Positions 133 to 31,505 are shown, counted from the stretch's first letter. The stretch: 41,075 nt of DNA from an uncultured Gammaproteobacteria bacterium (GCA_964426075.1 CAYROP010000003.1:1-41075), one strand, 5' to 3'. Translations and numbers: made by a program. Notes: a model not told the origin generated them from the sequence alone.

Positions 133-160
133 AAAAAATTGCCCGCTATTGCTAGCGGGC
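133..160 (-). terminator. intrinsic terminator of the minus-strand zinc-knuckle operon
   Basis: Perfect 8-bp stem GCCCGCTA/TAGCGGGC (141-160), followed on the minus strand by AATTTTTT (133-140). It starts 9 nt after the stop codon at 169-171. Confidence 0.7.
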
Positions 161-168
161 GTGTGAAC

Positions 169-360
169 TTAGGTTTGTCGTGGACAGCCGAGCAGATGGT
201 GAGTCGTGCTTTGGCAGGTGGGGCAGGGGTCGTTAGGACGACCGCCTTTTGCGTACTTTTTGCGATTTTCCTCTTTCTGCGCGTAGAGTTTGCCGAGAGC
301 AGCAAAGAGTGGATCGAGCAAAGCTTCGTCATCAGATGACTCTTTGGACTGCGTCGGCAT
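169..360 (-). CDS. small CCHC zinc-knuckle protein, paralog 3 of 3
   Basis: C-terminus CPTCQSTTHHLLGC fits CX2CX5HX3C, as in the two upstream ORFs. AQKEENRKK resembles AQMRENHKR of ORF 553-765. A terminator follows directly. The start is ambiguous (ATG 360 or TTG 429). Confidence 0.5.
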   Translation of the reverse strand: MPTQSKESSDDEALLDPLFAALGKLYAQKEENRKKYAKGGRPNDPCPTCQSTTHHLLGCPRQT

Positions 361-368
361 TTGGACTT

Positions 369-560
369 TTAGGTATCCATCGCCAAACAGTCCTGGGTGT
401 GCCAGAAGCAGCCGCCGCAGGCTTTGCAAGCCGAGCCACGGATGAGGCGAGTGCCGATACGGATGCCGAGATCGGTTGTTCTAGTGGGCTGAGGAGGTGG
501 CGGGGGTGTTGAGCTGCCGTTGATTGGGGTCATGATGGACTTGTGCTCCTTTTTACTCAT
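369..560 (-). CDS. small CCHC zinc-knuckle protein, paralog 2 of 3
   Basis: C-terminus CKACGGCFWHTQDC fits CX2CX5HX3C. The ATG overlaps the stop of the upstream ORF by 8 nt (ATGAGTAA), which suggests translational coupling. Confidence 0.5.
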   Translation of the reverse strand: MSKKEHKSIMTPINGSSTPPPPPQPTRTTDLGIRIGTRLIRGSACKACGGCFWHTQDCLAMDT

Positions 561-765
561 CGTATTTGCAGTCGGATGGATGGTAGTAACTCTGCCCGCA
601 TGACGGACAGGGAATGATTTTGTCTACTTCTCCTCGGTCCAGTCGCTTGTGGTTTTCGCGCATTTGAGCGTTGACTCGGTCGCGCTCGACGATGTGGTGA
701 GCCGCTGCAGGCGACACAGTGAGGTTTTGGAATGGGCTCGGTGGCTGATTGCCGAATAGGCTCAT
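553..765 (-). CDS. small CCHC zinc-knuckle protein, paralog 1 of 3
   Basis: AGGAG SD (776-780, minus strand) lies 10 nt before ATG 765. C-terminus CPSCGQSYYHPSDC fits CX2CX5HX3C. Confidence 0.6.
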   Translation of the reverse strand: MSLFGNQPPSPFQNLTVSPAAAHHIVERDRVNAQMRENHKRLDRGEVDKIIPCPSCGQSYYHPSDCKYDE

Positions 766-799
766 GTCTAAAAGACTCCTAATGTTAAGTTACTGGTTA

Positions 800-808
800 A
801 TTATATCA
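800..808 (-). promoter_or_regulatory. extended -10 promoter (TGATATAAT) for the minus-strand operon
   Basis: The reverse complement of ATTATATCA is TGnTATAAT. It lies back to back with the first plus-strand cassette promoter. Confidence 0.45.
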
Positions 809-826
809 TTTTTCGACAAATATAGG

Positions 827-865
827 CCCGTAGTAATTGATTTTAATGCTTAAATATTGTATAAT
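827..865 (+). promoter_or_regulatory. cassette promoter module type I (box CCCGTAGTAA + TTGATT-N17-TATAAT)
   Basis: Box at 827-836, -35 at 837-842, 17-nt spacer, -10 at 860-865. Confidence 0.6.
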
Positions 866-897
866 TTTGGGTTAGTACCCTAAAACGGAGGATTAGC

Positions 898-1164
898 TTG
901 CCCGATAATGATCCCGTCGTCTACTATGTAATCAAGCATTGCGGCGACTGCGACATGATCACTTTCCATGGTACTGCTGAAAAGCGTGACAAGGAAACGA
1001 ATGAGTGGAAGGCCAGATTCTCTGCCTCCCGATCTTTTTGGGTCAACGACTCGGGCCAAATGCCGTTGTCCGAAGCCATCGAATGGTACGAGGACTACTT
1101 CCCGAAGTACGGTGGCATGAACGACCCGCGAACCGTTGTCGAACAGGCTGTCAGCGCAAGCTAA
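898..1164 (+). CDS. hypothetical small protein, family A (copy 1 of 3)
   Basis: GGAGG SD lies 7 nt before the TTG start. Codons are GC3-rich. It shares VVYY, T-x-E/S-x-RD, LSEAIEWYE and NDPR motifs with ORFs 2099 and 3588. Confidence 0.7.
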   Translation: MPDNDPVVYYVIKHCGDCDMITFHGTAEKRDKETNEWKARFSASRSFWVNDSGQMPLSEAIEWYEDYFPKYGGMNDPRTVVEQAVSAS

Positions 1165-1178
1165 CATCCCCAGAACAT

Positions 1179-1208
1179 ATGCGTCTCTACAAAGAGGCGC
1201 ATTTTTTT
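1179..1208 (+). terminator. intrinsic terminator
   Basis: Stem ATGCGTCTCT, loop ACAA, stem AGAGGCGCAT, then T7. Confidence 0.75.
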
Positions 1209-1218
1209 GTCAAAATAA

Positions 1219-1257
1219 CCTGTAGTAATTGACTTTTGAGGCTAAAAATGGTATAAT
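1219..1257 (+). promoter_or_regulatory. cassette promoter module type I (box CCTGTAGTAA + TTGACT-N17-TATAAT, with TGn)
   Basis: Box at 1219-1228, -35 at 1229-1234, 17-nt spacer ending TGG, -10 at 1252-1257. Confidence 0.65.
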
Positions 1258-1317
1258 CAGGGGTAATAGTGGGGTGTGAAAGCCCTTACTAAATATGCAC
1301 TTTCAAAGAGGTGAAGT

Positions 1318-1842
1318 TTGGTTAAGTCTCTGTTTGTGCGGGCGCTTGGTGCCTACGCCGTCCTGGTCGCCGCGATTGTGGCCTTCCTCTGGTTTACCAG
1401 AGAGAAGATCGTCAGTTTCGATCTCGATTGTCTCGAGCTGGACAACTGGGAACACAGGGGTCGTACCTGGTTCTACACCGAGTTCCAATCTGCTGCCGAC
1501 AAGGCAGGAATCCCCGCAAGGCTCTCCCAGTCGATATACCGTGTCAACATCGGGGAGAAGAACGAGTTCGTCGGTGTCGAGCTACTTGGTTCGGATGCAG
1601 ATCAAGGCAGTCTTGCAGTAAAGGAGATCTTTGTCTCCTATCTCTGCGAGACTGGCTGGGAACAGATTGTTCCGACCAAGCAAGGCTACGGCTCGCATGG
1701 TGAGCGCGAGGTTTGGTATTTCCAGACCGAGCATCTCCTTGCGCTCGGCAACAGTCCGGCGGTGTTCGTCGTCAACTTCGGTCGCAAGCTGAAGCATGTC
1801 GAACCGACGATGCCTACCCGACCCCGCCTCAATTTCGTCTAA
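1318..1842 (+). CDS. hypothetical protein, family C, N-terminal TM helix
   Basis: AGAGGTG SD and TTG start. Motifs TWFYTEFQSAADKA, EIFVSYLCETGWE and VFVVNFG are shared with ORFs 4579 and 2645. Confidence 0.7.
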   Translation: MVKSLFVRALGAYAVLVAAIVAFLWFTREKIVSFDLDCLELDNWEHRGRTWFYTEFQSAADKAGIPARLSQSIYRVNIGEKNEFVGVELLGSDADQGSLAVKEIFVSYLCETGWEQIVPTKQGYGSHGEREVWYFQTEHLLALGNSPAVFVVNFGRKLKHVEPTMPTRPRLNFV

Positions 1843-1865
1843 CTCCAAGACGAACCTCTTTCCTT

Positions 1866-1896
1866 AGCCCTCCCTTAAACAAGGAGGGCTTTTTTT
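1866..1896 (+). terminator. intrinsic terminator
   Basis: Stem AGCCCTCCCTT, loop AAAC, stem AAGGAGGGCT, then T7. Confidence 0.75.
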
Positions 1897-2017
1897 GAGT
1901 CTCGAGACAAACCTACGGTTTTTCTCGAGGCCTCTTGGCAAAGCCAAGTTTTGCAAGCAAAAACGGCCGACTCTTTTCCCTTGGAAACAGAGGCTAGAAT
2001 ACCACCTTTCTTTCTAT

Positions 2018-2058
2018 CCTGTAGTAATCTTGTTTTTTAAGAATAAATAGTGTAGAAT
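2018..2058 (+). promoter_or_regulatory. cassette promoter (box CCTGTAGTAA, then TTGTTT-N17-TAGAAT)
   Basis: Box at 2018-2027, -35-like at 2030-2035, -10 at 2053-2058. Confidence 0.5.
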
Positions 2059-2098
2059 TTCCGCCTCAGCTTTTTGAGGCTTAGGGAGGTTTACGGAA

Positions 2099-2386
2099 AT
2101 GTCCAACATCGATACCGACACCGTGATCCACTACCTGCACACGCAGGAAGCACCCGACTGGTACAAGGTTTCGTTCTTCCGCACAGCGTCGGAGCGTGAC
2201 GACCAGGCAGACAAGTGGCGGCTTTCGCACATCAAGTCCGGTTTCGGTCGTCCCGAGACTGGAGAGATCTGCCTCTACCGCGCCATCGAATGGCACGAGA
2301 ACGAGCACTGCCCCAACTGCGTGGTCGACGACCCAAGGTCGTTGTTCCCGAGTTCGTACCCGACTCGTGAGCTGGCATATGCGTAG
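2099..2386 (+). CDS. hypothetical small protein, family A (copy 2 of 3)
   Basis: GGGAGG SD and ATG start. Motifs VIHY, FFRTASERD, YRAIEWHE and DDPR align with ORFs 898 and 3588. Confidence 0.7.
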   Translation: MSNIDTDTVIHYLHTQEAPDWYKVSFFRTASERDDQADKWRLSHIKSGFGRPETGEICLYRAIEWHENEHCPNCVVDDPRSLFPSSYPTRELAYA

Positions 2387-2421
2387 GTCTGCCTAAGGCC
2401 TCGTATCAACAAGTCCGCATC

Positions 2422-2452
2422 GCCCTCTGTAGAATTACAGGGGGCTTTTTTT
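2422..2452 (+). terminator. intrinsic terminator
   Basis: Stem GCCCTCTGT, loop AGAATT, stem ACAGGGGGC, then T7. Confidence 0.75.
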
Positions 2453-2568
2453 GGGTTTCAGTTTTTTAATCTTATAATTACTCGCCAAAACTTTTTCAAA
2501 AACTGCCTCCGACATTTTTGTGCAATATTTTGGCTACGTCTTGCAGAATAGTTTGTTTAACAAACTAT

Positions 2569-2606
2569 CCTGTAGTATTTACTTCTGAAGCTAAATGTGA
2601 TAAGAT
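2569..2606 (+). promoter_or_regulatory. cassette promoter module type I, degenerate (box CCTGTAGTAT, TTTACT-N17-TAAGAT with TGn)
   Basis: Box at 2569-2578. The spacer CTTCTGAAGCTAAATG resembles the spacer of the 1219 module. -10 at 2601-2606. Confidence 0.5.
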
Positions 2607-2644
2607 GGCTGCCAGAACTTTAACGAGATAAGGAGCCCAAGTTT

Positions 2645-3106
2645 GTGGCTGTTGTTATTGACATCCCGTTCTCTCAGCTTCGTGACCTTAATTGGTCCGA
2701 GCTGGAGTTGGATGAACTACAAAGGGTCTTTTCGGAGGCCTGCGACGAACTCCTCAAGCCTCACGGTTTGAGAGTCAGGACTACTTTTGTCCGTCACCCA
2801 ATGGGAGACGGGGACAAGTGGTTCATGGCGGTTCATTTCGCCAACGAAACCGAACGCAAGAGTGCTCTCCTTCGGGAGATGTCGTTTTTCTACCTCAACG
2901 ATCGTGGTATGGAGGACAAGCTCGAGTGGATTCCAGCTCGACGCGCTGACCTTAAGTCTGCTGCTCCGTCGATGGTGTCAACCTTTTCGTATGGACGGCT
3001 CGCCAGAATCAGTGGCCAGATCTTGTTTCTTCGGCTCGACTTCGGTCCGGAGATCAAGTACGGCCTTCGTGAGGGCAAGCGCGGTACTGCTCTCCAGTCC
3101 TTGTAG
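2645..3106 (+). CDS. hypothetical protein, family C
   Basis: AAGGAG SD and GTG start. EMSFFYLNDRGMEDKLEWIP and ILFLRLDFGPE align with ORFs 1318 and 4579. Confidence 0.7.
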   Translation: MAVVIDIPFSQLRDLNWSELELDELQRVFSEACDELLKPHGLRVRTTFVRHPMGDGDKWFMAVHFANETERKSALLREMSFFYLNDRGMEDKLEWIPARRADLKSAAPSMVSTFSYGRLARISGQILFLRLDFGPEIKYGLREGKRGTALQSL

Positions 3107-3129
3107 ATCACCAGAACCAAGGAGTACGG

Positions 3130-3465
3130 ATGACCTTCAGTTTCGAGAGGGATGCGACTAAAATCGCAAAGCCCAAGAAGAAGGCCAAAAGCCAGAAGCG
3201 GCCCTGTTATCACTGCGTACGCTTGACGGCGCGGATTCAGGAGCTGTTCGACGGTCGCAAGGTTCACTTGTGTGGTCGGTGCTGGGCGGAGAATTTTACC
3301 GAACAGCAGAAGACGCGCATTATCAGTGCGAGCGAAGCCCGCGAGACCATCGCTTCTCGTAGCCGTGAACATGCTCGTTTCGGTAATCACGGACTGCAAA
3401 GTGTTCGTGGTTCACGGCCGCATATAGTGTCTGGCGGTTTGCCTTCCTTGGGCAAGCGCCGCTAA
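3130..3465 (+). CDS. basic zinc-ribbon protein (CYHC...CGRC), second gene of a bicistronic cassette
   Basis: AAGGAG SD lies 5 nt before the ATG. Lys-rich N-terminus KIAKPKKKAKSQKRP, then CxxC-N17-CxxC. No terminator separates it from ORF 2645. Confidence 0.65.
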   Translation: MTFSFERDATKIAKPKKKAKSQKRPCYHCVRLTARIQELFDGRKVHLCGRCWAENFTEQQKTRIISASEARETIASRSREHARFGNHGLQSVRGSRPHIVSGGLPSLGKRR

Positions 3466-3481
3466 AGGCTCTTTTTCCTTT

Positions 3482-3518
3482 GCCTCCTCAAAACCAATAG
3501 GTTAGAGGGGGCTTTTTT
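3482..3518 (+). terminator. intrinsic terminator
   Basis: Stem GCCTCCTC, 15-nt loop, stem GAGGGGGC, then T6. Confidence 0.6.
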
Positions 3519-3524
3519 ATTAGT

Positions 3525-3553
3525 TTGATATTTGGTTTGAGGAGGAATAGAAT
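3525..3553 (+). promoter_or_regulatory. cassette promoter TTGATA-N17-TAGAAT (no box)
   Basis: -35 at 3525-3530, -10 at 3548-3553. Confidence 0.5.
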
Positions 3554-3587
3554 ACTCTGTCTAGAACATTGACGAGGAGAGATTTAG

Positions 3588-3875
3588 TTGGCTGAGTCTA
3601 ACCCAATGGTGTATTACTACACCACGATCATTACTGGAAAGGGTCATTCGACGACCTTTTTCGCAACGCCAGAGGAGCGTGATGAAGCCGCTTCTGATTT
3701 CCGCAACCGTTATTTCATGTCGTCGGCGGCTTCGGTTTCGGCCGAGAGTGAGATGGTGTTGTCCGAAGCGGTTCGGTGGTACGAGAAACATCGTGGCGAT
3801 GACGAGAACATGAACGACCCTCGAGCTCTGTTCTCTGACTGCAAACTCCGGGAGGCGGTTGTCTCCGGAGCCTGA
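3588..3875 (+). CDS. hypothetical small protein, family A (copy 3 of 3)
   Basis: GAGGAG SD and TTG start. Motifs MVYYY, FFATPEERD, LSEAVRWYE and NDPR. Confidence 0.7.
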   Translation: MAESNPMVYYYTTIITGKGHSTTFFATPEERDEAASDFRNRYFMSSAASVSAESEMVLSEAVRWYEKHRGDDENMNDPRALFSDCKLREAVVSGA

Positions 3876-3892
3876 AAAGGCGAACTCAATAT

Positions 3893-3925
3893 AGGCACTT
3901 ACACTAGTTGTAGGTGCCTTTTTTT
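3893..3925 (+). terminator. intrinsic terminator
   Basis: Stem AGGCAC ... GTGCCT with a 15-nt loop, then T7. Confidence 0.6.
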
Positions 3926-3937
3926 ATTTGAAAAAGT

Positions 3938-3966
3938 TTGCAAAAATTATCCTAGAGTAATAAAAT
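3938..3966 (+). promoter_or_regulatory. cassette promoter module type II (TTGCAA-N17-TAAAAT, box CCTAGAGTAA in the spacer)
   Basis: -35 at 3938-3943, box at 3951-3960, -10 at 3961-3966. Confidence 0.5.
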
Positions 3967-4007
3967 AGACTTTCAGATTTTGATTTAACAAAACAGAGGA
4001 AAGGATC

Positions 4008-4460
4008 GTGTCTTTGTTCAAGGACATAGTAGTTAGTCTGAAGCCGTGGGTGGTGTTTACTAACGCACGGTATCAGTTCGGACGCGAGCTCGATATTTCT
4101 GGATTGGAGGAATGGATAAGGGATGCATTCTGGTGGCAGAGCCCTGAGATTGTTTGGAGTATTGCTACCACCTCTGATTCGGTAACAATCGAAGTTCCGA
4201 AAACCTGGCTTTCGATTCGGCTTAGGCCGGTGATCGCTAGTTTTGGAGATGATCGATTTTGTCTGATCGACGGCTATGTTGTCGAGGACAGAATGTTCCG
4301 TTTTCGGCTTCCGCAAGGCAAGCAACTCGAACGAATCGCTAACCTTGAAGAACCAGAGATGAGGTTGCGATTTGTCGAGGACCAACACGCCATGGTAATT
4401 CCGGAGTTGATGGCAAGATTGCCAAAGATTTCGGAAGCCGAACCTGGGCACCCATATTAA
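4008..4460 (+). CDS. hypothetical protein (150 aa, Trp-rich, beta-type pattern)
   Basis: GAGGAAAGGA SD and GTG start. Codons are GC3-rich. The terminator overlaps the stop codon. Confidence 0.6.
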   Translation: MSLFKDIVVSLKPWVVFTNARYQFGRELDISGLEEWIRDAFWWQSPEIVWSIATTSDSVTIEVPKTWLSIRLRPVIASFGDDRFCLIDGYVVEDRMFRFRLPQGKQLERIANLEEPEMRLRFVEDQHAMVIPELMARLPKISEAEPGHPY

Positions 4461-4480
4461 ACTGTGGGTGCCTTTTTTTT
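4446..4480 (+). terminator. intrinsic terminator
   Basis: Stem GGCACCCA ... TGGGTGCC, then T8. Confidence 0.75.
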
Positions 4481-4505
4481 GATTACCTAGGTTTGAGCAA
4501 ATTAT

Positions 4506-4544
4506 CCCGTAGTGTTTGATTTGTGCTTAAAAAAATAATATAAT
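4506..4544 (+). promoter_or_regulatory. cassette promoter module type I (box CCCGTAGTGT + TTGATT-N17-TATAAT)
   Basis: Box at 4506-4515, -35 at 4516-4521, -10 at 4539-4544. Confidence 0.6.
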
Positions 4545-4578
4545 TACCGCTTGAACTTTAAGTGGCGAGGGTAAAAGT

Positions 4579-5142
4579 TTGACTGTCTTGGTTACGGTCC
4601 CATTGGGTGATCGTGAGCTTGGCTGGGGGTACGCGGACCGTGTATGGTTCTCGGACAAATTCCGCCAAGCGGCTCGGGAAGCTGATGTCGAGGTCATGCT
4701 TGCACGAGATCTTTTTCAGCCCGTGGTAGGTACCGATAGCGAGTACCTTCACATCAAGTTCGCCCATTTTTACGGCGAAAGATCCTTTCCCATCGTTGAG
4801 CGGCTGTTTATCAGCTACACCGACGAAGAGGGGGTTGAGCGGAAGCTTTTTCCCCGAGTTGCGGATCGAGATCATGGATCCGGTCATCACGCTATTTCGT
4901 GGGTTTTTTCTACAAAAGACCTGCACAGAGCTGGTGGGCGATTCAACAAGTTCGTCGTCGACTTTGGAGACGAGCTGTGCTTTGTTCCGGTTTCCAAAAG
5001 GATGCCGAGGCCGAGCAAGTTCAAGCTTCTGATTGTCGGCTTTGTTGCTGCCGTCGTTTCTCTTCTTTTCACTGAGAGGGTCAAGAAGCGTTCGGGAAAA
5101 GGCAAGAGCAGGCAAAATGTTCGGACTGTGAAGGACGAGTGA
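4579..5142 (+). CDS. hypothetical protein, family C, C-terminal TM anchor and basic tail
   Basis: TTG start. RVWFSDKFRQAAREA, RLFISYTDEEGVE and KFVVDFGDE align with ORF 1318. The TM segment is FKLLIVGFVAAVVSLLF. Confidence 0.7.
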   Translation: MTVLVTVPLGDRELGWGYADRVWFSDKFRQAAREADVEVMLARDLFQPVVGTDSEYLHIKFAHFYGERSFPIVERLFISYTDEEGVERKLFPRVADRDHGSGHHAISWVFSTKDLHRAGGRFNKFVVDFGDELCFVPVSKRMPRPSKFKLLIVGFVAAVVSLLFTERVKKRSGKGKSRQNVRTVKDE

Positions 5143-5168
5143 TGTTTATTAGCAGCTGAAAAACTAAC

Positions 5169-5205
5169 GGCACTCCTAGATTTTATTTAGGGGTGCCTTT
5201 TTTTT
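5169..5205 (+). terminator. intrinsic terminator
   Basis: Stem GGCACTCCTA ... TAGGGGTGCC, then T8. Confidence 0.75.
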
Positions 5206-5212
5206 AACTCTA

Positions 5213-5241
5213 TTGTAATAAATGACCTAGAGTATTAGAAT
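5213..5241 (+). promoter_or_regulatory. cassette promoter module type II (TTGTAA-N17-TAGAAT, box CCTAGAGTAT)
   Basis: The 16-mer CCTAGAGTATTAGAAT (5226-5241) is identical to 6313-6328. Confidence 0.55.
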
Positions 5242-5301
5242 TCTTTTAATTCTGGTCGGTTATATCCTATTCCAATAGGAAGAAAGAAGAAGGTTAGGAG
5301 T

Positions 5302-5682
5302 ATGTCAGGCCTAGAGTTTGACATGGATGTCCACGAGCTGTCTGAAGTGTTGGAGAGCGGAGACGATCTGGTGTTTTGGTTGAACTTGAGGTTTGACCAC
5401 AACAATCGGTATCTTGCAGCCAGAGGTGTGGTTGGGGGACAAGTGACACTTGTTCCTGATCCAATAAACCATGGCAAACGGAAGCTGACTTTTGCGTTTC
5501 CGAGGCTCAACAAGTCGATTTTTCGACTGTCACTCGAGTCTTCTCGCAAGAACACATCAGTTCAGGCCAACTATCGTTTCGTCGACGGGACCGATAAGCC
5601 GTTCCGGTTCTCATTCGACTGGGATGAGTTTGTTACCGCACTGCAACCAGACGCTGTTTTGCGATTCAAGCTTCATCCATGA
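5302..5682 (+). CDS. hypothetical protein (126 aa, beta-type pattern)
   Basis: Purine-rich SD region, ATG start, GC3-rich codons, own terminator. Confidence 0.6.
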   Translation: MSGLEFDMDVHELSEVLESGDDLVFWLNLRFDHNNRYLAARGVVGGQVTLVPDPINHGKRKLTFAFPRLNKSIFRLSLESSRKNTSVQANYRFVDGTDKPFRFSFDWDEFVTALQPDAVLRFKLHP

Positions 5683-5704
5683 TCGGAGCAAGAATGGCTA
5701 GATC

Positions 5705-5733
5705 GCCCCCGAGTAATATCGGGGGCTTTTTTT
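5705..5733 (+). terminator. intrinsic terminator
   Basis: Stem GCCCCCGA, loop GTAATA, stem TCGGGGGC, then T7. Confidence 0.8.
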
Positions 5734-5741
5734 GAGGTTTT

Positions 5742-5770
5742 TTGGTGTACAATAATTGACTAAGTAGAGT
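5742..5770 (+). promoter_or_regulatory. possible cassette promoter TTGGTG-N17-TAGAGT
   Basis: Weak match. The alternative is -10 TACAAT at 5748-5753. The sequence CTAAGTAGAGT is box-like. Confidence 0.3.
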
Positions 5771-5794
5771 TGCGGATCAAAAAACTTTGGTGGG

Positions 5795-6220
5795 TTGGTG
5801 ATGTATCTTCAGGTCATGACTCACTCGTTCGAGCGAGCATTTGTCGAGGGAGAGTTCGAGCTTCGTGGTAAGCTTGTTGAGAGCTTGCTTGCGGGTCATC
5901 TCAACAAAACATTAAGGCGTTCTGGTCTTTATGTCGTTGGGTGTTGTTTTGACAACTCTGACGCTGTTGAACAGTTAACGCTGACTATCCTTGACTGTGA
6001 AGGTCGAGGCGTAAAAATGTCAGAGGCTAAACTGGTCTTTGATGTCGACCCAAACAAGCCGTTTTTTGCGGTGCTAGGTAGGAAGGTTGGATGCGGAATT
6101 TACCAATTCCACATTATGCCTTATCACCAGCCATCTGTTCAAAACTTTTGCAGGCTCGTTTTTGAGTTTGTGCTTCCCGAATCAAGCGAGGCATTAAATG
6201 AGATGGGCGAGCCAAAGTAA
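5795..6220 (+). CDS. hypothetical protein (about 140 aa)
   Basis: TTG 5795, GVG-adjacent GTG 5798 and ATG 5801 are consecutive possible starts, with a weak SD. Codons are GC3-rich and the ORF has its own terminator. Confidence 0.5.
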   Translation: MVMYLQVMTHSFERAFVEGEFELRGKLVESLLAGHLNKTLRRSGLYVVGCCFDNSDAVEQLTLTILDCEGRGVKMSEAKLVFDVDPNKPFFAVLGRKVGCGIYQFHIMPYHQPSVQNFCRLVFEFVLPESSEALNEMGEPK

Positions 6221-6260
6221 TGGTTGTAGCATAATCAAAAATGCTTCGGCTAGTCACATA

Positions 6261-6292
6261 AGACACCTTTTGAGGAAGAGGTGTCTTTTTTT
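6261..6292 (+). terminator. intrinsic terminator
   Basis: Stem AGACACCT ... AGGTGTCT with a 10-nt loop, then T7. Confidence 0.75.
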
Positions 6293-6299
6293 CATCTTA

Positions 6300-6328
6300 T
6301 AGACAAATTAGGCCTAGAGTATTAGAAT
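6300..6328 (+). promoter_or_regulatory. cassette promoter module type II (TAGACA-N17-TAGAAT, box CCTAGAGTAT)
   Basis: Box at 6313-6322, -10 at 6323-6328. Confidence 0.55.
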
Positions 6329-6367
6329 TGCATTCAGCACATTTGCAAAAAAAGCGAGGAATATCTG

Positions 6368-6997
6368 ATGACAAATCGGATCGAGGAACTCAGGTTCCCC
6401 GTGTCTGGGTCTGCCTTGGATAGCTTCCGAAGGGCAGCGAACAACACGAACGAATGGTCAGGAATCTTCGGTAAGATTCTGACTGCGCCATCGGCGGTTT
6501 GGGGACGGAATCAGCCTGCACCTCAGATCTGGGCGCTTATCCGTGTTGACCGGATCAGGAACGATTATCGGCTCCTGTTTCGATTCGTTAACGCGGCCAC
6601 TGGCGATGATCTCCATCTGCAAGGCATCGTCATCGAACACGGACCTTCGAGGGTGGCTGTGCCGATGGTCCATACCAGCATGGCATCGATGGTTGCCGCC
6701 AAAGGCATGTACGGCGTGCGGGGTGAAACCCGTATGCATCATGGGTTTGCGGTAAGCAGTCTTCGGGGTGTTTTTCCGCAGGCTCGCAACCTCGTCGTCA
6801 AGCTCGAAATGCCTTCCGGTGTAACCAGTCCAGTTATTGGTGTTCCGGAGGTGACAGAACCGACGAGCGTAAGCGAGTTCGGCCAGTTTCGCGCGGCAAG
6901 CTCGTCCCGCTTTACCGAAGAGAGGGATTTCCCGCGGAGGGGTACGTTTTCGTACGACCCCCGTCTGGATGGACCCCGACGAGTTTTTCGAAGTTAA
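6368..6997 (+). CDS. hypothetical protein (209 aa), N-terminal ELRF motif
   Basis: GAGGA SD and ATG start. The N-terminus IEELRFPVS...NEW resembles ORF 7630 (VELRFDLS...ANW). Confidence 0.6.
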   Translation: MTNRIEELRFPVSGSALDSFRRAANNTNEWSGIFGKILTAPSAVWGRNQPAPQIWALIRVDRIRNDYRLLFRFVNAATGDDLHLQGIVIEHGPSRVAVPMVHTSMASMVAAKGMYGVRGETRMHHGFAVSSLRGVFPQARNLVVKLEMPSGVTSPVIGVPEVTEPTSVSEFGQFRAASSSRFTEERDFPRRGTFSYDPRLDGPRRVFRS

Positions 6998-7040
6998 CCT
7001 CGAAGAAAACGACTGCAGTTAATGTAGTCACAAGCCTTAT

Positions 7041-7074
7041 GGGCGTCTCTGTAATAAGAGGCGCCCTTTTTTTT
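7041..7074 (+). terminator. intrinsic terminator
   Basis: Stem GGGCGTCTCT, loop GTAATA, stem AGAGGCGCCC, then T8. The stem core matches the terminator at 1179. Confidence 0.8.
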
Positions 7075-7096
7075 ATAAATTTTCTAATGTATTTAT

Positions 7097-7134
7097 CCTG
7101 TAGTATTGGATTTTTATGGATAGACTAGTATAAT
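7097..7134 (+). promoter_or_regulatory. cassette promoter module type I (box CCTGTAGTAT + TTGGAT-N17-TATAAT)
   Basis: Box at 7097-7106, -35 at 7106-7111, -10 at 7129-7134. Confidence 0.6.
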
Positions 7135-7186
7135 TTGCTCCAGCTCGTTAACAGACCATCAATACCAAAGAAATGGGGAATGCGAG

Positions 7187-7624
7187 ATGTCTGAGATTTT
7201 GTCCTTCAGGGCGACTTTCGACCAGCAAGCCAGGTTGAAGCTCGAGAAGGAGCCATTTGCCAATTGGCCGACGATCCTTTGGGATGTCGTGGCTGACGGC
7301 AGACAATTAAGGCATTTTCGTGCCAAGAACTTGACGATTTCGGTCGTCTACAAGCTGTTCTTTCCCTATCGCAAGTGGCTGGTTTTCATGGCCACGAACG
7401 AACAAAATCCTACTGCTGTTCCTGCTGAAATCACAGGGCTTGAGATCCATACTGATCACGCCAATGTTCCTGTGATCAAGTCGAGGGTTTTCCCTGAAGG
7501 GATTGCTGGTGGTGAGGCGTTTGTGGGCTTACGATATTTCGACGCGGTCGATATCAGGGACCAGATCAAGCAACTCACTGGCATCTACTTCACCGTTCGG
7601 GTCCCTGAAACTGTGGAGGCCTAA
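7187..7624 (+). CDS. hypothetical protein, first gene of a 3-gene cassette
   Basis: ATG start and GC3-rich codons. The PFANWP motif parallels LANW and KTWP in the next two ORFs. Confidence 0.6.
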   Translation: MSEILSFRATFDQQARLKLEKEPFANWPTILWDVVADGRQLRHFRAKNLTISVVYKLFFPYRKWLVFMATNEQNPTAVPAEITGLEIHTDHANVPVIKSRVFPEGIAGGEAFVGLRYFDAVDIRDQIKQLTGIYFTVRVPETVEA

Positions 7625-7629
7625 ACAAG

Positions 7630-8061
7630 ATGGAGAGTGTTGAGCTAAGGTTCGATCTCTCGCCTTGGGCTGAGATGTATATCTCCGGCCGAGGTTTGGC
7701 CAACTGGGTCATCGATCTTGAGAACCATCTTGGCGCTCTGCCAACTCTCAAGGAGGGTAGTATCCACGAGGTGTTTTTGCGGGAGTGTATTTTTGCCGGG
7801 GTCAGAAGTGATCTTAAAGCAAAAGACGGTCCTGCTATAGACTTTCGATTCATGCGAGATGGGACAACGGCACAAGTCGGTGTTCAATCGCTTGTATTGG
7901 AAGGTAACGGTTCGCAACCAGAACCCCTTGAAGCGAAAGAGCGGTGGTCGGCTGATTTTCGACAGACGGTTTGGCGATTTGGCCAGGTCGAGTTCGAAGA
8001 AAGAATGGCCAAAGGCAGCAAGACGCTGGTATTGGCTGTTTATCCATTGCAGGGCAAGTAA
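7630..8061 (+). CDS. hypothetical protein, second gene of the 3-gene cassette
   Basis: A GGAGG SD sits inside the end of the previous ORF, 10 nt before the ATG. No terminator lies in between. Confidence 0.6.
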   Translation: MESVELRFDLSPWAEMYISGRGLANWVIDLENHLGALPTLKEGSIHEVFLRECIFAGVRSDLKAKDGPAIDFRFMRDGTTAQVGVQSLVLEGNGSQPEPLEAKERWSADFRQTVWRFGQVEFEERMAKGSKTLVLAVYPLQGK

Positions 8062-8094
8062 GTGCTCTGTTTCAGGTGAGTAAAGGAGGCTGTT

Positions 8095-8553
8095 CTGAAG
8101 CGGTCGTTCGAGATTCCTCTTGCGTCTTGGAAATATTCTTGGACGCGTAAGCCAGTTAAGACTTGGCCCATGGTCATAGCTCAGCTGGTCGACATGTCGG
8201 AGGATACCCAACAGGCATTGGAGGGGATAATGCTCGAAATTATTCCTGCCAACATTGTTGGTCAGGGCGCGGTTTGCTTTGGTTTTGTTCGGACCTCAAA
8301 AACCCGAAAAGCCAAAGTTCGTGTCTATTTCGAGACGGATACGGAAGACACCGGAGTATTCGAAGGTGTTTCTTCCTCTGGAATCGACGGATCTGGTACG
8401 GGAAACCGTATTTTTTTCCTTCGGGAATTGGAGCGGGTTCTGCCGATTGCCAACAAACTCGTTATCGAAGTCGATGACGGGAATGGCGACTCTGCGCCAC
8501 GAAGAAGTTTGTGGCGGCGGATAAATCTTGGTTTCGGGGGTAGAGATAGGTAG
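8095..8553 (+). CDS. hypothetical protein, third gene of the cassette; proposed CTG start (the track calls ATG 8170)
   Basis: The frame is open from 8080. A perfect AAGGAGG (8083-8089) lies 5 nt before CTG 8095, while ATG 8170 has no SD. The added N-terminus SFEIPLASW...KTWP matches the N-termini of the paralogs. Confidence 0.5.
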   Translation: MKRSFEIPLASWKYSWTRKPVKTWPMVIAQLVDMSEDTQQALEGIMLEIIPANIVGQGAVCFGFVRTSKTRKAKVRVYFETDTEDTGVFEGVSSSGIDGSGTGNRIFFLRELERVLPIANKLVIEVDDGNGDSAPRRSLWRRINLGFGGRDR

Positions 8554-8566
8554 TCTGGTCTGACAT

Positions 8567-8598
8567 GGGCGCTCTTTAAAAAGAGCGCCTTTTTTTTT
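8567..8598 (+). terminator. intrinsic terminator closing the island
   Basis: Stem GGCGCTCTT, loop TAAA, stem AAGAGCGCC, then T9. Confidence 0.8.
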
Positions 8599-8653
8599 AA
8601 GCAATTGGAGAGATTTGCTTGCCTGTAAATATTAATATGGTTAATATAAAAGT

Positions 8654-10336
8654 ATGAATGTTAAAAAATTCATAACTAGCGGAGCTGTAGGTATTTGTAT
8701 GCTTGTTTTGACAATTGCTCCCGCTTTGGCTGATTCAGCTGGTGTGGATTTTGAGAGTTATACATTAGGCTCGATTTCTGGTCAGGATGGGTGGAGTAAT
8801 GCGGTGAATCCTGTCTATGATCAGGCGGTGGTGTCAAATACATACGGGTATTCAAGCTTTGGTTTAAAGTCGTTGAGAGTGTCAGATGCTGTAACAAGTG
8901 GGTCTTTTGGTGATTGGATTTTTGCAAAACCTTTGGCAGATTCTGTTGGTGAGACCGCAGCGACAAGTGGGTCTTTTTCTCCAGGCTTGAAGCAGACTCA
9001 CTTTGAAACTCAGTTCGATATCGCATCGACACAACTGGCTCAGCAAACAGGAATGCATGTTTCTATTTCTCCTGATCGTGGTGATGGTTCAAGAATGAGC
9101 TATTTACGTTTTGAAGATGGAGCAGGGGGAATTAATGTGTTTTTTGATGATGTTCAAGGTACATCTAATCCTGCTAACTTTGTTGAGACACAAATCGGAA
9201 CTGATCTCAGTCGAACTGTACCTCACACAATTCGGTTGACGATGGATGTTGTTGAGGGTCCGTCAAACGATGTGGTTAAAGTCTGGATTGATGGAAATTT
9301 GGTTATTACTGGTACAAGCTGGGAAAATTACTATCGATTTGATAGCGAAGCCTCAGCAGAACAGAGTCCAAGGATCGTGAAGACGGTGATAATTCAGGCC
9401 AGGGGTTCGGCAAATCCAGCAAATTTGGGTAAAGGGTATTTATTTGACAATTTTTCGTTAACTTCATCAACATCAACCGCGCCGTCAGTACCAGTTGTTA
9501 CCTTGCCGGCCAATAACGCAGTTGTAACTACTTCAACGCTAACCAAAATTGACTGGACTGATTCAACTGGGGGGACTAATCCGCCGTTTGAATATCGGTA
9601 CGAAGCGTTTAATGATGCGGGTTATACGACAAGTATTTATACAAGTGCTTGGCTTAGTGTGTCTGAGATTCCTACACCAGGGACATCACCGGGGGTTTAT
9701 TATGTCCGTGTTAAAGCAAGGAATGCTTTGGGTGACGAAACAGCTTGGAGTAACGACGCACTTAACCCGTACAAAATCACCGTTATTGCTGATGGGCCGG
9801 TGCTTGTTGGTCCACCGACTGATAAAAACCAGTGTAAGAGAAATGGTTGGAGAGCGTTTAATAATCCGACTTTTAATAACCAGGGTCAGTGTGAAAAATA
9901 TGTTAAAGACCATAAAGACGACGGGAAGGCTGAAGGTGACTTGAGGCTAGTTAATCCAAATCAGAGAATTAAGTTTAAGTTGTCTGAAAAAGATGTATCT
10001 AATTCGAATCATCACAAGTCAGGACATAATTATGTCGAGTACTGGAACTACGAATATCCTGGAATTTTGCATTACAAGGCAAAAGTGATTTGTGCAGAAG
10101 TTGATAAGATTACCAAGGAGGCGAGATTCGTCTTTCAAATCCCCAATGGTTGGCCAGGACTATCAGGTTTGTATGTGGTTGCATATGTTAAAGATATTAA
10201 ACAAAAGGGGGTAGCCGATCTGTATGGTCATGCTGCAACGGCTGATTTAACTATTGCTAATGCTTGGTGCGATACTGGAGTAGGGTTTAGCCCTTCAATG
10301 TACTCGGTGGTGAAGGGTAAAGTAGAGGTTAAATAA
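8654..10336 (+). CDS. secreted protein of unknown function (signal peptide)
   Basis: Signal peptide MNVKKFITSGAVGICMLVLTIAPALA|DS. 560 aa with AT-rich codon usage. There is a possible Fn3-like segment in the middle. No catalytic motif recognised. Confidence 0.8.
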   Translation: MNVKKFITSGAVGICMLVLTIAPALADSAGVDFESYTLGSISGQDGWSNAVNPVYDQAVVSNTYGYSSFGLKSLRVSDAVTSGSFGDWIFAKPLADSVGETAATSGSFSPGLKQTHFETQFDIASTQLAQQTGMHVSISPDRGDGSRMSYLRFEDGAGGINVFFDDVQGTSNPANFVETQIGTDLSRTVPHTIRLTMDVVEGPSNDVVKVWIDGNLVITGTSWENYYRFDSEASAEQSPRIVKTVIIQARGSANPANLGKGYLFDNFSLTSSTSTAPSVPVVTLPANNAVVTTSTLTKIDWTDSTGGTNPPFEYRYEAFNDAGYTTSIYTSAWLSVSEIPTPGTSPGVYYVRVKARNALGDETAWSNDALNPYKITVIADGPVLVGPPTDKNQCKRNGWRAFNNPTFNNQGQCEKYVKDHKDDGKAEGDLRLVNPNQRIKFKLSEKDVSNSNHHKSGHNYVEYWNYEYPGILHYKAKVICAEVDKITKEARFVFQIPNGWPGLSGLYVVAYVKDIKQKGVADLYGHAATADLTIANAWCDTGVGFSPSMYSVVKGKVEVK

Positions 10337-10367: not shown

Positions 10368-11039
10368 TTATATTAAATTCAGGATTGTTTGAATGGTTTT
10401 TTGATTGAAGATTATTTTGTGGTGTCCTTTAATCGGAAGAGTAATATTTTCTGAAGCGGAATTGAGTTTGGTTTGTTTAGGGTGCCAAACATGATTGTCA
10501 AAAGTTGGGGTGATTGTGCATATTTTTTTATCAAGATCGCATTTGCTGTTTAAATTTTGGACGGTTTCACTATTAGGATGGAGTTCTTTAAATGGTTTGC
10601 CAATTAAGTATTTGGTTAGGTTTGAACCATGGAATGGGGTAGCAATTGCGATTATTTTTTTGATTTTTGGAGAAACTGGAGAATTGTTAAGTAAGTGTTT
10701 GGCAATTAGACCGCCTTTGGAATGGGCAACAATTACAACATTTTGTAATGAGTTGTCGAGAATTATTTGCTCAATAAGTTTTGCCTGATTTGGAACTGAA
10801 TCGAGATTATGTCCAAGCTCTGGGGCGATATAAACAGGGTGGCCGGCTAATGAAATAGCATCGCCTAGTTTTTTCATAAATCCCCATTTAAGTGTGACGC
10901 CTTGGATTAGGATAACTGGGTTTTTGCCGTTTATTACGTGTCCGAGATAGTGTTTGGGTGGCTTGCGGTGTTGATACATCATTCGCCAGCCGTTGGCCAT
11001 ATACGCGTAATCAATTGCCCAGTCTAATATTTTTCTCAT
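10368..11039 (-). CDS. alpha/beta-hydrolase (lipase/esterase-like)
   Basis: Nucleophile elbow VIVAHSKGG; 223 aa. Confidence 0.7.
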   Translation of the reverse strand: MRKILDWAIDYAYMANGWRMMYQHRKPPKHYLGHVINGKNPVILIQGVTLKWGFMKKLGDAISLAGHPVYIAPELGHNLDSVPNQAKLIEQIILDNSLQNVVIVAHSKGGLIAKHLLNNSPVSPKIKKIIAIATPFHGSNLTKYLIGKPFKELHPNSETVQNLNSKCDLDKKICTITPTFDNHVWHPKQTKLNSASENITLPIKGHHKIIFNQKTIQTILNLI

Positions 11040-14616: not shown

Positions 14617-15164
14617 AGAGAAAGACTATTGGCGTCAAGATTCATCACATAAATATTAGGCAGAGTATTTCAATAATTTTACTCAAATTAGTTCTGCTTG
14701 AGGTTTTGTTTGCGTCTGGGTTTTTGTTTGTGTATTTTAGTTTTGGTAATGAGTTGGTTGTGAGAAGTGTGATGGGTTTAGTTGAGAGTTTGTTTGGTTG
14801 GATCTTTTTGTTTTTGGTTTTTGTCAAAATTTATATGACGATTTATATAATCCTCGATTGGTTGAATATGTATTACGAGGTGAATGGGGAGTATATCTAC
14901 CTTAGAAAAGGAGTAATTTGGACAACTGAGCAGAAATTTGCGATTGCAAATTTTGGCGATGTGACATTGGAGCAGAATTTGATGGGAAGGATTTTTAACT
15001 TTGGCAATATTAGGATTTTTGATACAGAGTTAAAAAGAGATTTTTTGCTCTATTTAATACACAATCCAAACAAATATTACGAAATTTTAAGTTCGATTTC
15101 TCCATCGGGAGATAAAGAAAAAAAAGTAATTCGTCAGCATTTTAGCTCCGATATTGATCTTTAG
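14613..15164 (+). CDS. membrane protein with bPH_2 (YdbT/DUF304-like) domain
   Basis: TM helices are followed by YYEVNGEYIYLRKGVIW. ATGA overlap with the upstream gene. Confidence 0.65.
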   Translation: MKRKTIGVKIHHINIRQSISIILLKLVLLEVLFASGFLFVYFSFGNELVVRSVMGLVESLFGWIFLFLVFVKIYMTIYIILDWLNMYYEVNGEYIYLRKGVIWTTEQKFAIANFGDVTLEQNLMGRIFNFGNIRIFDTELKRDFLLYLIHNPNKYYEILSSISPSGDKEKKVIRQHFSSDIDL

Positions 15165-15168
15165 AATA

Positions 15169-15197
15169 TTGACACCTAATTGGCACTGTAGTATATT
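15169..15197 (+). promoter_or_regulatory. sigma70-type promoter TTGACA-N17-TATATT of the hsp20 gene
   Basis: -35 at 15169-15174, -10 at 15192-15197. Confidence 0.65.
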
Positions 15198-15206
15198 GAG
15201 TGCTAA
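15180..15206. promoter_or_regulatory. CIRCE-like HrcA operator
   Basis: TTGGCACTG-N9-GAGTGCTAA against the consensus TTAGCACTC-N9-GAGTGCTAA (7/9 and 9/9). It overlaps the -10. Confidence 0.65.
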
Positions 15207-15237
15207 ATAGATAATTAATGCAAAGGAGGTGAAAGAT

Positions 15238-15663
15238 ATGGCGATTGTTAAGTGGAATCCATGGAATTTGTCATCGATGTTGGATGATGATTGGGATATG
15301 CAGACTTTACCAACAAGAGTTGGTCAGGGGTTGAATGTGTATGAAACAGAAGATTCGATTGTTGCAGAAGCGGCAATGCCTGGTATTAGTGAAAAAGACA
15401 TTGAGGTAAGTGTTGATGATGGAGTCGTGCATGTAACCGGGTCGTCCTCTTTGACAAAAGAGAACAAAGATGGGAGAAGATATTTCATGTCCAGTATGGC
15501 TTCGACATTTAATTACTCTTTCAGACTTCCTGAAGGGGTAGCTAGTGATAAAGAGCCAAAAGCAGAAGTTGAACATGGAGTTCTTTATCTGACTTTTCCA
15601 AAAGCAGCAAAAACTGAGCCTAAAAAAATCAAAGTTGGGGTTCGTGGGGAAAAGAAGGCTTAA
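15238..15663 (+). CDS. Hsp20/alpha-crystallin small heat-shock protein
   Basis: Alpha-crystallin domain pattern. The AGGAGGTG SD sits about 7 nt before ATG 15238, and the track start GTG 15229 lies inside that SD. Confidence 0.85.
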   Translation: MAIVKWNPWNLSSMLDDDWDMQTLPTRVGQGLNVYETEDSIVAEAAMPGISEKDIEVSVDDGVVHVTGSSSLTKENKDGRRYFMSSMASTFNYSFRLPEGVASDKEPKAEVEHGVLYLTFPKAAKTEPKKIKVGVRGEKKA

Positions 15664-15695
15664 GGAAATATTAAGTTTGGTTAACTAAAATAAAG

Positions 15696-29762: not shown

Positions 29763-29846
29763 GCCGGGGTGGCGGAATTGGTAGACGCGCACGTCTCAAA
29801 CACGTGTGAAAGCAATTTCATGTGGGTTCAAGTCCCACTCCCGGCA
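29763..29846 (+). tRNA. tRNA-Leu (anticodon CAA), class II with long variable arm
   Basis: Manual cloverleaf: acceptor GCCGGGG/TCCCGGC, anticodon stem CACGT/ACGTG with loop CTCAAAC, variable arm TGAAAGCAATTTCAT, T-arm GTGGG-TTCAAGT-CCCAC, discriminator A. No encoded CCA. Confidence 0.93.
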
Positions 29847-29955
29847 CAGTTTTTTAATTCCAAAAATTCAATTTAAACAATCATATCGACAGTTATAGGC
29901 TATTGTAGTAGTATTTGTGGCTAGCACTTTAAGCAAAGGAAGGGTGAAACAACTA

Positions 29956-30789: not shown

Positions 30790-30813
30790 ATCGAGGAGGT
30801 TGGCTTAGAAATA

Positions 30814-31473: not shown

Positions 31474-31505
31474 ATCAAAAGAAAGCGAGGTAAGGTGTCG
31501 AAAGA

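Follow-up and report, generated by a model that had tools for sequence, protein, structure and literature searches.

A predicted co-regulated array of G+C-rich gene cassettes, probably old and clade-specific, at one chromosomal locus of Candidatus Curtissbacteria

Phage morons are independent promoter-gene-terminator units found inside prophages. Integrons work through the tyrosine recombinase IntI and its attI site; their attC sites are imperfect inverted repeats, one at each boundary of a cassette, and their cassettes are mostly promoterless. The small-gene families of Borrelia cp32 elements and of phytoplasmas are thought to serve host interaction, and they lie on plasmids, prophages and transposon-like units. 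Here we describe a locus that resembles each of these systems in part. It occupies positions 133-8598 of a 41,075-nucleotide (nt) stretch of DNA (GCA_964426075.1, CAYROP010000003.1:1-41075; 'the window' hereafter means this whole stretch), and is a G+C-rich island coding for 17 proteins, from 14 plus-strand open reading frames (ORFs) and three minus-strand genes. On balance, we favour reading it as an old, co-regulated, clade-specific chromosomal accessory array of Candidatus Curtissbacteria, in the Microgenomates group of the Candidate Phyla Radiation (CPR).

Like phage morons, the island units have, as predicted from their sequence, a sigma70-type promoter and an intrinsic terminator of their own, together with a deviating composition and small uncharacterised products. 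Unlike morons, they lie outside any phage genome, in a long tandem with a shared promoter element, and the array is conserved at one chromosomal locus across the clade and, judged by synonymous divergence (dS), has the age of the host genes. With chromosomal integrons it shares the single orientation of small, mostly uncharacterised genes, a repeated boundary sequence and the presence or absence of cassettes, but it has no IntI, attI or attC, each cassette carries its own predicted promoter and terminator, and the order is largely conserved; the repeats of the array are its promoters, their shared motif and families of terminators, and no attC-like sites were seen. Clusters of interbacterial defence and orphan immunity genes (of the recombinase-associated acquired interbacterial defence, or rAID, type) are similar in their small, divergent paralogous proteins, repeated intergenic DNA and odd composition, whereas the array is without recombinase, toxin remnants or known immunity domains and is confined to one clade. 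As in defence islands, the content evolves fast, and in some relatives the array adjoins a variable spot bearing an AIPR gene; however, the ten proteins scanned gave no match in PADLOC, and the proteins are small and without enzymatic domains. The resemblance to Borrelia cp32 families and phytoplasma mobile units lies in the clade-specific paralogs of small proteins in a small genome, but the array is chromosomal, lacks mobility genes and stands out as G+C-rich within a genome that is A+T-rich. Finally, its base composition and codon usage deviate as in a classical acquired genomic island, yet every relative found has it at the same locus, with no integrase and no adjacent tRNA.

The island contains 46-52% G+C against about 37% in the remainder of the window. 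In 1-kb windows, G+C runs at 0.46-0.52 up to about 8.5 kb and at 0.33-0.43 from there on, with the exception of a second patch at 29.5-32 kb, and 200-nt windows place the island edges near 100-130 and 8500-8600. Inside these edges the 200-nt windows trace a saw-tooth, in which coding parts reach 50-60% and spacers 36-42%. G+C at third codon positions (GC3) is 0.60 +/- 0.08 in 15 island genes and 0.32 +/- 0.04 in 32 host genes, and the values at first and second positions (GC1 and GC2) are likewise above those of host genes. Thus, the G+C-rich island with a step near 8.6 kb, which an initial annotation of this DNA had proposed, is borne out. Large antisense ORFs (for example 3924-4451 and 7645-8211) were rejected as by-products of the high G+C content. 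Scans of the whole window against Rfam and for tRNAs gave a tRNA-Leu at 29763 as the sole match, so the island is no RNA locus.

Twelve units are predicted in the island: one minus-strand three-gene unit and 11 plus-strand promoter-ORF-terminator units, in each of which an A+T-rich sigma70-type promoter and a Shine-Dalgarno sequence precede one to three G+C-rich ORFs and a strong intrinsic terminator follows them. They are listed here with predicted promoters and terminators; 'motif' is the shared 11-nt element described below, and protein lengths are in amino acids (aa).

141..160, minus strand: intrinsic terminator of the minus-strand unit, at the left edge of the island; hairpin GCCCGCTAGCAATAGCGGGC, then a T-run
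169..765, minus strand: three-gene unit, family C, small proteins with C-terminal CX2CX5HX3C; C3 169-429 (true start probably the ATG at 360), C2 369-560, C1 553-765
827..1202, plus strand: cassette A1; motif 827-837, promoter TTGATT-17-TATAAT 837-865, ORF 898-1164 (88 aa, family A), terminator 1179-1202
1219..1896, plus strand: cassette B1; motif 1219-1229, promoter TTGACT-17-TATAAT 1229-1257, ORF 1318-1842 (174 aa, family B, N-terminal membrane helix), terminator ~1866-1896
2018..2452, plus strand: cassette A2; motif 2018-2028, promoter TTGTTT-17-TAGAAT ~2030-2058, ORF 2099-2386 (95 aa, family A), terminator 2422-2445
2544-2572: inverted repeat just 5' of the next cassette
2569..3518, plus strand: cassette B2+3130; motif 2569-2579, promoter TTTACT-17-TAAGAT 2578-2606, ORF 2645-3106 (153 aa, family B), ORF 3130-3465 (111 aa), terminator ~3482-3518
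3525..3925, plus strand: cassette A3; promoter TTGATA-17-TAGAAT 3525-3553 without motif, ORF 3588-3875 (95 aa, family A), terminator 3893-3919
3938..4480, plus strand: cassette 4008; promoter TTGCAA-17-TAAAAT 3938-3966, motif 3951-3961 within the spacer, ORF 4008-4460 (150 aa), terminator 4446-4473
4506..5205, plus strand: cassette B3; motif 4506-4516, promoter TTGATT-17-TATAAT 4516-4544, ORF 4579-5142 (187 aa, family B, C-terminal membrane helix), terminator 5169-5197
5213..5733, plus strand: cassette 5302; promoter TTGTAA-17-TAGAAT 5213-5241, motif 5226-5236 within the spacer, ORF 5302-5682 (126 aa), terminator 5705-5726
5795..6293, plus strand: cassette 5795; promoter weak or unclear and no exact motif, ORF 5795-6220 (141 aa), terminator 6260-6287
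6300..7074, plus strand: cassette 6368; promoter TAGACA-17-TAGAAT 6300-6328, motif 6313-6323 within the spacer, ORF 6368-6997 (209 aa, isoelectric point (pI) 10.9), terminator 7041-7066
7097..8598, plus strand: three-gene cassette; motif 7097-7107, promoter TTGGAT-17-TATAAT 7106-7134, ORFs 7187-7624 (145 aa), 7630-8061 (143 aa) and 8170-8553 (127 aa), terminator 8567-8590 at the right edge of the island

All 11 plus-strand units of the initial annotation were found, and a strong hairpin followed by a T-run lies 3' of every one (11/11). The units listed in that annotation are plus-strand ones; three of the 17 genes (169-765) form one minus-strand unit with its own terminator reading from 160 to 141. 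Its expectation of a sigma70-like promoter before each unit is right for most and doubtful at 5795, where the promoter is weak or unclear; the four promoters of the form TTGAYT/TTGGAT-N17-TATAAT that it counted are indeed at 837, 1229, 4516 and 7106. Half of the plus-strand ORFs (7/14) start with TTG or GTG, again as described, and the last of them starts at 8170, not at 8095. The signals agree with the view that this is a string of independent units and not an operon. Sigma70-like sites number 18 in the island against 7.5 +/- 3.0 in shuffled sequence, and terminator-like sites 21 against 10.9 +/- 3.5. No comparable terminator occurs in the 32 kb of host DNA in the window (12 against 12.9 expected and 14 against 8.9, all weak). 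In this host part (8599-41075), promoter-like sites between 9 and 28 kb are rarer than in shuffles (31 against 51.7).

Nine promoters share an 11-nt element, CCYRKAGTRWT. It occurs nine times in the window against 0.37 expected, in all nine cases on the plus strand and at an island promoter. Homologous and comparison loci are labelled L002 to L120, about 10 kb having been read on either side of each homolog; across genomes, there are 32 plus-strand and no minus-strand matches in about 40 kb of islands, and one match in about 135 kb of host flanks. That lone flank match (L005, 1232-1242) lies near a thymidine kinase gene in a region of 45% G+C, where it occupies the spacer of a promoter-like site with TTGACT. 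Two registers are seen. In the first (units 898, 1318, 2099, 2645, 4579 and 7187), the final T of the element is the first T of the -35 hexamer, give or take one base; in the second (units 4008, 5302 and 6368), the element fills the spacer and its final T is the first T of the -10 hexamer. Furthermore, it is retained at the orthologous promoters of L009 and L012 despite proteins that are only 35-60% identical, and the constraint on the element is therefore stronger than that on the coding sequence. CCYRKAGTRWT most likely binds one common DNA-binding factor. As the element overlaps polymerase contacts in both registers, it would best fit the operator of a common repressor, which this factor probably is; the zinc proteins of the island, that is 3130 or those of family C, are candidates for the role.

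Similarly, almost all orthologous positions in the six genomes compared carry a terminator, in many cases with another stem sequence. After B1, for example, the stems across genomes are CCCTCC/GGAGGG, GCGCCCCC/GGGGCGC and CCCCCAGCTT/AAGCTGGGGG. This retention in spite of changed stems points to selection on the hairpin itself.

The host can be placed through its proteins. DnaB, YchF, EF-P, YebC and PrfA of the window have cluster mates at least 90% identical that are named Candidatus Curtissbacteria, and from these names, which are the basis of the taxonomy, we take the host to be an uncultivated, ultra-small bacterium of the CPR, within the Microgenomates group. Outside the island, the window codes for rarA, rpsF-ssb, ctpA, htrA, prfA, rpmE, hisS, dnaB, efp, lgt, lspA, rluD, a LytR_C protein, yebC, ruvC and a DUF5656 protein, and the presence of rpsF-ssb-rpsR, LytR_C and DUF5656 fits CPR. 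The label 'uncultured Gammaproteobacteria' carried by two of the island-bearing metagenome-assembled genomes (MAGs), L007 and L008, is probably a mislabel. At least one related study (SRP286056) sampled wastewater and river water (PMC9405806).

Starting from homologs of families A and B, we found the same array in the independent assemblies L002, L005/L006, L007, L009, L012 and L013/L014, and it is G+C-rich in every relative. The L002 contig, from GCA_964404855.1, is 660 kb long and carries host genes to either side of the array. The left border is cysS wherever the contig extends so far, and some genomes have one more gene between cysS and the array, which in L002 encodes a trypsin-like protease and in L012-L014 is an AIPR abortive-infection gene. 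On the right, the ortholog of a 560-aa signal-peptide protein forms the border in L002, L007, L009, L012 and L013; beyond it, L002 and L009 have a PGAP1-like hydrolase and L002 also has rarA.

How old the array is can be judged from its substitutions. The genes are real: all 15 tested are under purifying selection, with ratios of non-synonymous to synonymous divergence (dN/dS) of 0.08-0.31 against their orthologs (0.11-0.19 for C1, 0.18-0.20 for B1). Between the window and L002, dS of island genes is 0.45-1.7 (about 1.0) and the median of 20 host genes is 1.22; the corresponding dN values are about 0.17 and 0.045 (host median), and omega is 0.10-0.25 in the island against about 0.03 in the same host genes. 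Thus, silent sites of the island have kept pace with those of the genome, and its proteins have diverged about four times as fast as host proteins. For the more distant L009 and L012, identity to the window is 31-76% in island proteins and 78% in the hydrolase of the flank. The 560-aa protein reaches 89% in L012, aligned from end to end, and 91% in L009, aligned in its C-terminal half. This divergence, about four times that of host genes, and the variation of cassettes among relatives uphold the earlier description of the genes as accessory, not core. The state of high G+C has lasted through about one synonymous substitution per site, and a sharp composition step need not mean recent transfer.

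The direction of substitution tells a similar story. GC3 of the ten genes common to four genomes is 0.57-0.59 in each of them. By parsimony among these genomes, which are near synonymous saturation and make the test semi-quantitative only, synonymous single-genome changes in the island number 153 from GC to AT and 115 from AT to GC, compared with 589 and 799 in a host control of 20 genes (GC3 0.31-0.33) and 72 and 63 in pyrF and pyrE (GC3 0.52-0.56). The per-site ratio of the two rates is about 1.6 in host genes, 0.96 in the island and 1.0 in pyrF/pyrE. The GC-to-AT share in the island, 57%, compares with about 68-75% expected under host bias and lies about four standard errors below 68%. This indicates that the G+C-rich genes are near a steady state of their own and are not relaxing toward 0.32; it seems that these genes maintain their G+C richness as a property of their own and that it is not a residue of recent transfer. 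In relatives the A+T-rich 560-aa gene sits amid G+C-rich genes, so that the cause should be gene-specific, and a regional cause such as biased gene conversion across the locus is disfavoured. Recent acquisition from the higher-GC donor that had first been suggested is not supported, given the common locus in all relatives, dS of about 1.0 against 1.2 and the near balance of synonymous changes. An ancient foreign origin of the array may nevertheless lie behind it. What maintains G+C-rich genes in an A+T-rich, reduced genome is a question that these data raise.

Comparison of related genomes showed that the number of cassettes varies and that gene order is conserved, individual cassettes being present or absent. 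A1 (898) is absent from L005, L007, L009 and L012 and its L002 ortholog is 91% identical; A2 (2099) is absent from L002, 5795 from L005, 7630 from L002, L007, L009 and L012, and C1 (553) from L002. In L012, the ortholog of 7187 aligns over residues 81-139 only (15341-15556) and no gene is called from 14870 to 15689; this copy may be a decaying cassette. Genomes without A1 have a hybrid B1 promoter region, which is of the window's A1 type 5' of the motif and of its B1 type 3' of it, with the crossover point falling within the motif/-35. The A2 and B2 promoters have in common about 110 nt of upstream sequence (window 2470-2580; L005 7200-7320 and 7870-7990), which ends in an inverted repeat of 9-15 bp, TAGTTTGTT-T-AACAAACTA, whose 3' arm enters the motif. 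The arms vary between genomes yet remain complementary, which suggests a hairpin or a site for binding of a dimer. The terminators fall into three sequence families, and the repeated intergenic sequence of the initial annotation is thus accounted for by promoter, motif and terminator families. From the hybrid junctions and the terminator families we infer that the array grew and shrank by recombination between its own repeated control regions; a dedicated recombinase is not required by the junction data.

The proteins themselves form three paralog families, in keeping with the 'at least three' first noted: A (898, 2099 and 3588), B (1318, 2645 and 4579) and C (the three minus-strand CCHC proteins). 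Family A proteins are acidic, of about 90 aa, with conserved W..E and DPR motifs. Family C paralogy is seen at E=4e-5 (C1-C3) and E=1e-4 (C1-C2), and its orthologs are present in L002, L005, L007, L009, L012 and L013. The remaining eight proteins are singletons in profile comparison: an all-against-all hhalign of island profiles gave only families A and B, and the notion that all proteins of 125-210 aa are diverged paralogs finds no support in their sequences. Among the singletons, the product of ORF 3130 is basic (pI 10.9) and zinc-ribbon-like, with CxxC...CxxC, and is the best conserved island protein, at 70-76% identity even in L009 and L012. Most of the 17 products lack a hydrophobic segment and two, B1 and B3, have a membrane helix, N-terminal in B1 and C-terminal in B3.

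That these proteins cannot be placed in known families, as first stated, was confirmed. In Pfam and PHROGs nothing scored below E=0.01 for the 16 proteins scanned in their own frames, a set that leaves out C3 (169-429); NCBIfam gave no match for ten island proteins scanned, and a PDB sequence search with families A and B, 3130 and 6368 gave nothing below E=0.1. A word-indexed search of 5.8 billion proteins returned 15 clusters for family B, 13 for family A and six for ORF 3130, and all those with examined contigs come from this clade. In an exhaustive profile search across 1.84 billion representatives, family B turned up in eight clusters only, confined to this clade, which also speaks against recent acquisition from a higher-GC donor. 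For genome scanning, the wide family B alignment was too divergent, and a narrower one found only two MAGs. AlphaFold models, of moderate confidence, show a beta-rich domain, one helix and a terminal helix for family B (predicted local distance difference test score, pLDDT, 75) and a beta-beta-alpha-beta-alpha topology for family A (pLDDT 79). In Foldseek, neither family had a match with E <= 0.001 in PDB, nor had family A in BFVD. Matches of family B to Kir channels arise from a terminal helix plus a beta-rich domain and are not significant; a GIY-YIG-like fold for family A was likewise rejected, the Foldseek matches being non-significant and Pfam giving none. At noise level, the modelled topology of family A may recall small domains of GIY-YIG type and small phage proteins, which is a lead and not a finding. 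In the literature, we found nothing on such islands in CPR or Curtissbacteria.

We therefore picture the array as follows. It would have been inherited at one locus, between cysS and the gene for the 560-aa protein, from before these genomes split. A common factor acting on CCYRKAGTRWT would switch it as one regulon, terminators would block read-through between units, and the repeated promoter and intergenic sequences would serve as crossover points for duplication, gain and loss of cassettes. The array probably serves in biotic conflict or interaction, either with a host cell or with phage, a role made most plausible by the fast protein evolution, clade restriction, cassette turnover and adjacent AIPR hotspot. 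The prevailing view of CPR bacteria, whose genomes are tiny, is that they live attached to other cells, and the genes for this lifestyle are largely unknown; the array offers a compact, experimentally tractable set for a search for host-interaction or anti-phage functions, comprising 17 clade-specific proteins, a candidate control element and natural variants.

Several observations weigh against this picture. The promoters, terminators and operator role are predicted; two plus-strand units, 3588 and 5795, are without the element, and no island protein has a recognisable DNA-binding fold. The function could not be assigned from sequence for any of the proteins or from fold for families A and B, and the AIPR gene at the left border in L012-L014 is only circumstantial for a role in conflict. 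The direction-of-substitution test puts the host equilibrium too high, at 0.39, where 0.32 is observed. Only at the A1 junction does the crossover fall cleanly within the motif; the junction lacking A2 in L002 is a complex hybrid of repeats near the motif, and the breakpoint of the 5795 loss in L005 lies away from it. If similar promoters simply underwent homologous recombination, such junctions would be accounted for with no special role for the motif.

Of the other explanations, the one to be taken most seriously, although we think it unlikely, is that a mobile element such as a prophage or integrative element was domesticated and left the array as its remnant, the moron-like cargo having been fixed in the ancestor of the clade and the donor still showing in promoters, terminators and composition. 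Units with their own promoter and terminator and an odd composition would look just so, the locus adjoins the variable spot of AIPR or protease genes, the same genomes hold other G+C-rich, strongly insulated single-gene units elsewhere, and family A has the weak, non-significant fold matches to small phage proteins. However, the gene tables of six loci contain no phage gene in or beside the island, whether integrase, structural, replication or other. No match was found in PHROGs for the 16 proteins scanned, by blastn against 50,697 phage and 72,556 plasmid records, or in a protein scan of IMG/VR, and motif-promoter scans of IMG/VR gave single chance-level matches or none. There is no tRNA and there are no flanking direct repeats at the site; in dS the island is level with the host genes, and its substitution directions nearly balance. 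These results also count against the phage moron of the initial annotation. At the far end of the scale, an assembly chimera or a contaminant fused to a Curtissbacteria contig has a negligible probability: the G+C step at 8.55 kb is sharp and the island is at a contig end, but the island lies at the same locus in independent assemblies of different studies, with the right junction in five more (L002, L007, L009, L012 and L013) and the left in L002, L005, L012, L013 and L014.

Two further explanations take up the repeats and the cassettes. It is improbable that the array stores immunity or antitoxin proteins, together with orphan modules, as a bank directed against the polymorphic toxins of competitors. 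Small, diverse, fast-evolving and paralogous proteins in one orientation, with repeated intergenic sequence and presence or absence among strains, would be expected of such a bank, but no recombinase, toxin, toxin-fragment gene or known immunity domain was found, the gene order is largely conserved with no shuffling, and the families are confined to one clade, whereas immunity families usually cross taxa. An integron-like system, in which the 11-nt element would be the site-specific recombination site of some recombinase, is very improbable. The motif does occur once per cassette at the 5' boundary, and the A1 indel junction crosses within it with the A2 junction close by. On the other hand, no recombinase Pfam family occurs within +/-10 kb in L002, L005, L009 or L012, the embedding of the motif in the cassette promoters at two fixed registers fits regulation, the 5795 loss breaks elsewhere, and 40-110 nt of flanking similarity suffices for ordinary homologous recombination. 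With own promoters and no attC-like sites, the integron-like or recombinase-associated array first considered is likewise set aside. Returning to the old chromosomal array that we favour, a bolder version of it would be that these CPR genomes keep a distinct class of stably G+C-rich, individually insulated cassette genes and that, in this array, one 11-nt element acts both as operator and as integrase-free crossover point. We regard this as speculative and distinctly doubtful; if true, it would be a new kind of cassette system providing fast-evolving effector or defence proteins to an episymbiotic bacterium.

The borders of the island show further variation. The variable spot between cysS and the island lies at 7402-8937 in L002, 7294-8859 in L012, 88-1698 in L013 and 4443-6053 in L014; its AIPR gene has a low, host-like G+C content, and the hairpin GCCCGCTAGCAATAGCGGGC is also found 3' of the AIPR gene in L012. 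The 560-aa protein (window 8654-10336; L002 16787-18400; L012 16286-17977) is 86-91% identical everywhere in its C-terminal half and has two N-terminal forms, one in the window and L012 and another in L002, L007 and L009, which BLAST does not align; from the sequences, this looks like a domain swap by recombination. Between its gene and that of the PGAP1-like hydrolase, an extra G+C-rich gene is present in L002 (18450-19060; minus strand, a signal-peptide protein), L009 (10050-10670) and L013 (10876-11442); in the window, which is without it, 10336 is followed directly by 10368-11039.

The second G+C-rich patch of the window (29763-31790, GC3 0.47-0.58) lies directly downstream of the tRNA-Leu(CAA) and holds pyrF (29917-30789), pyrE (30814-31473) and a 94-aa zinc-ribbon ORF (31506-31790). 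This last ORF has no call in L118 or L120 and is called in L119; pyrF and pyrE are kept in three related genomes, with dS of about 1.15 and balanced substitution directions. Upstream of cysS in L002 (1700-5850) are more G+C-rich single-gene units (up to 58%) without the motif, with near-consensus promoters TTGACA-16-TACAAT and very strong terminators with stems of 12-16 bp. Insulated G+C-rich genes may be a genome-wide class. Such scattered units and the motif promoters of L114 are hints in favour of the bolder version above. L114 (1346-3340) is on an unrelated 94-kb contig of about 40% G+C (JADMIO010806422.1), where two CCCGTAGTATTTGATT-N17-TATAAT promoters precede small ORFs of 55-58% G+C, one product being a putative lipoprotein. 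A metagenome scan for the class-I motif-promoter gave seven matches, none of which encodes an island protein or matches Rfam. In the metagenome loci L111, L112, L115 and L116, a motif-promoter lies 5' of fairly G+C-rich ORFs (GC3 0.50-0.68) whose products begin with a hydrophobic, signal-like segment.

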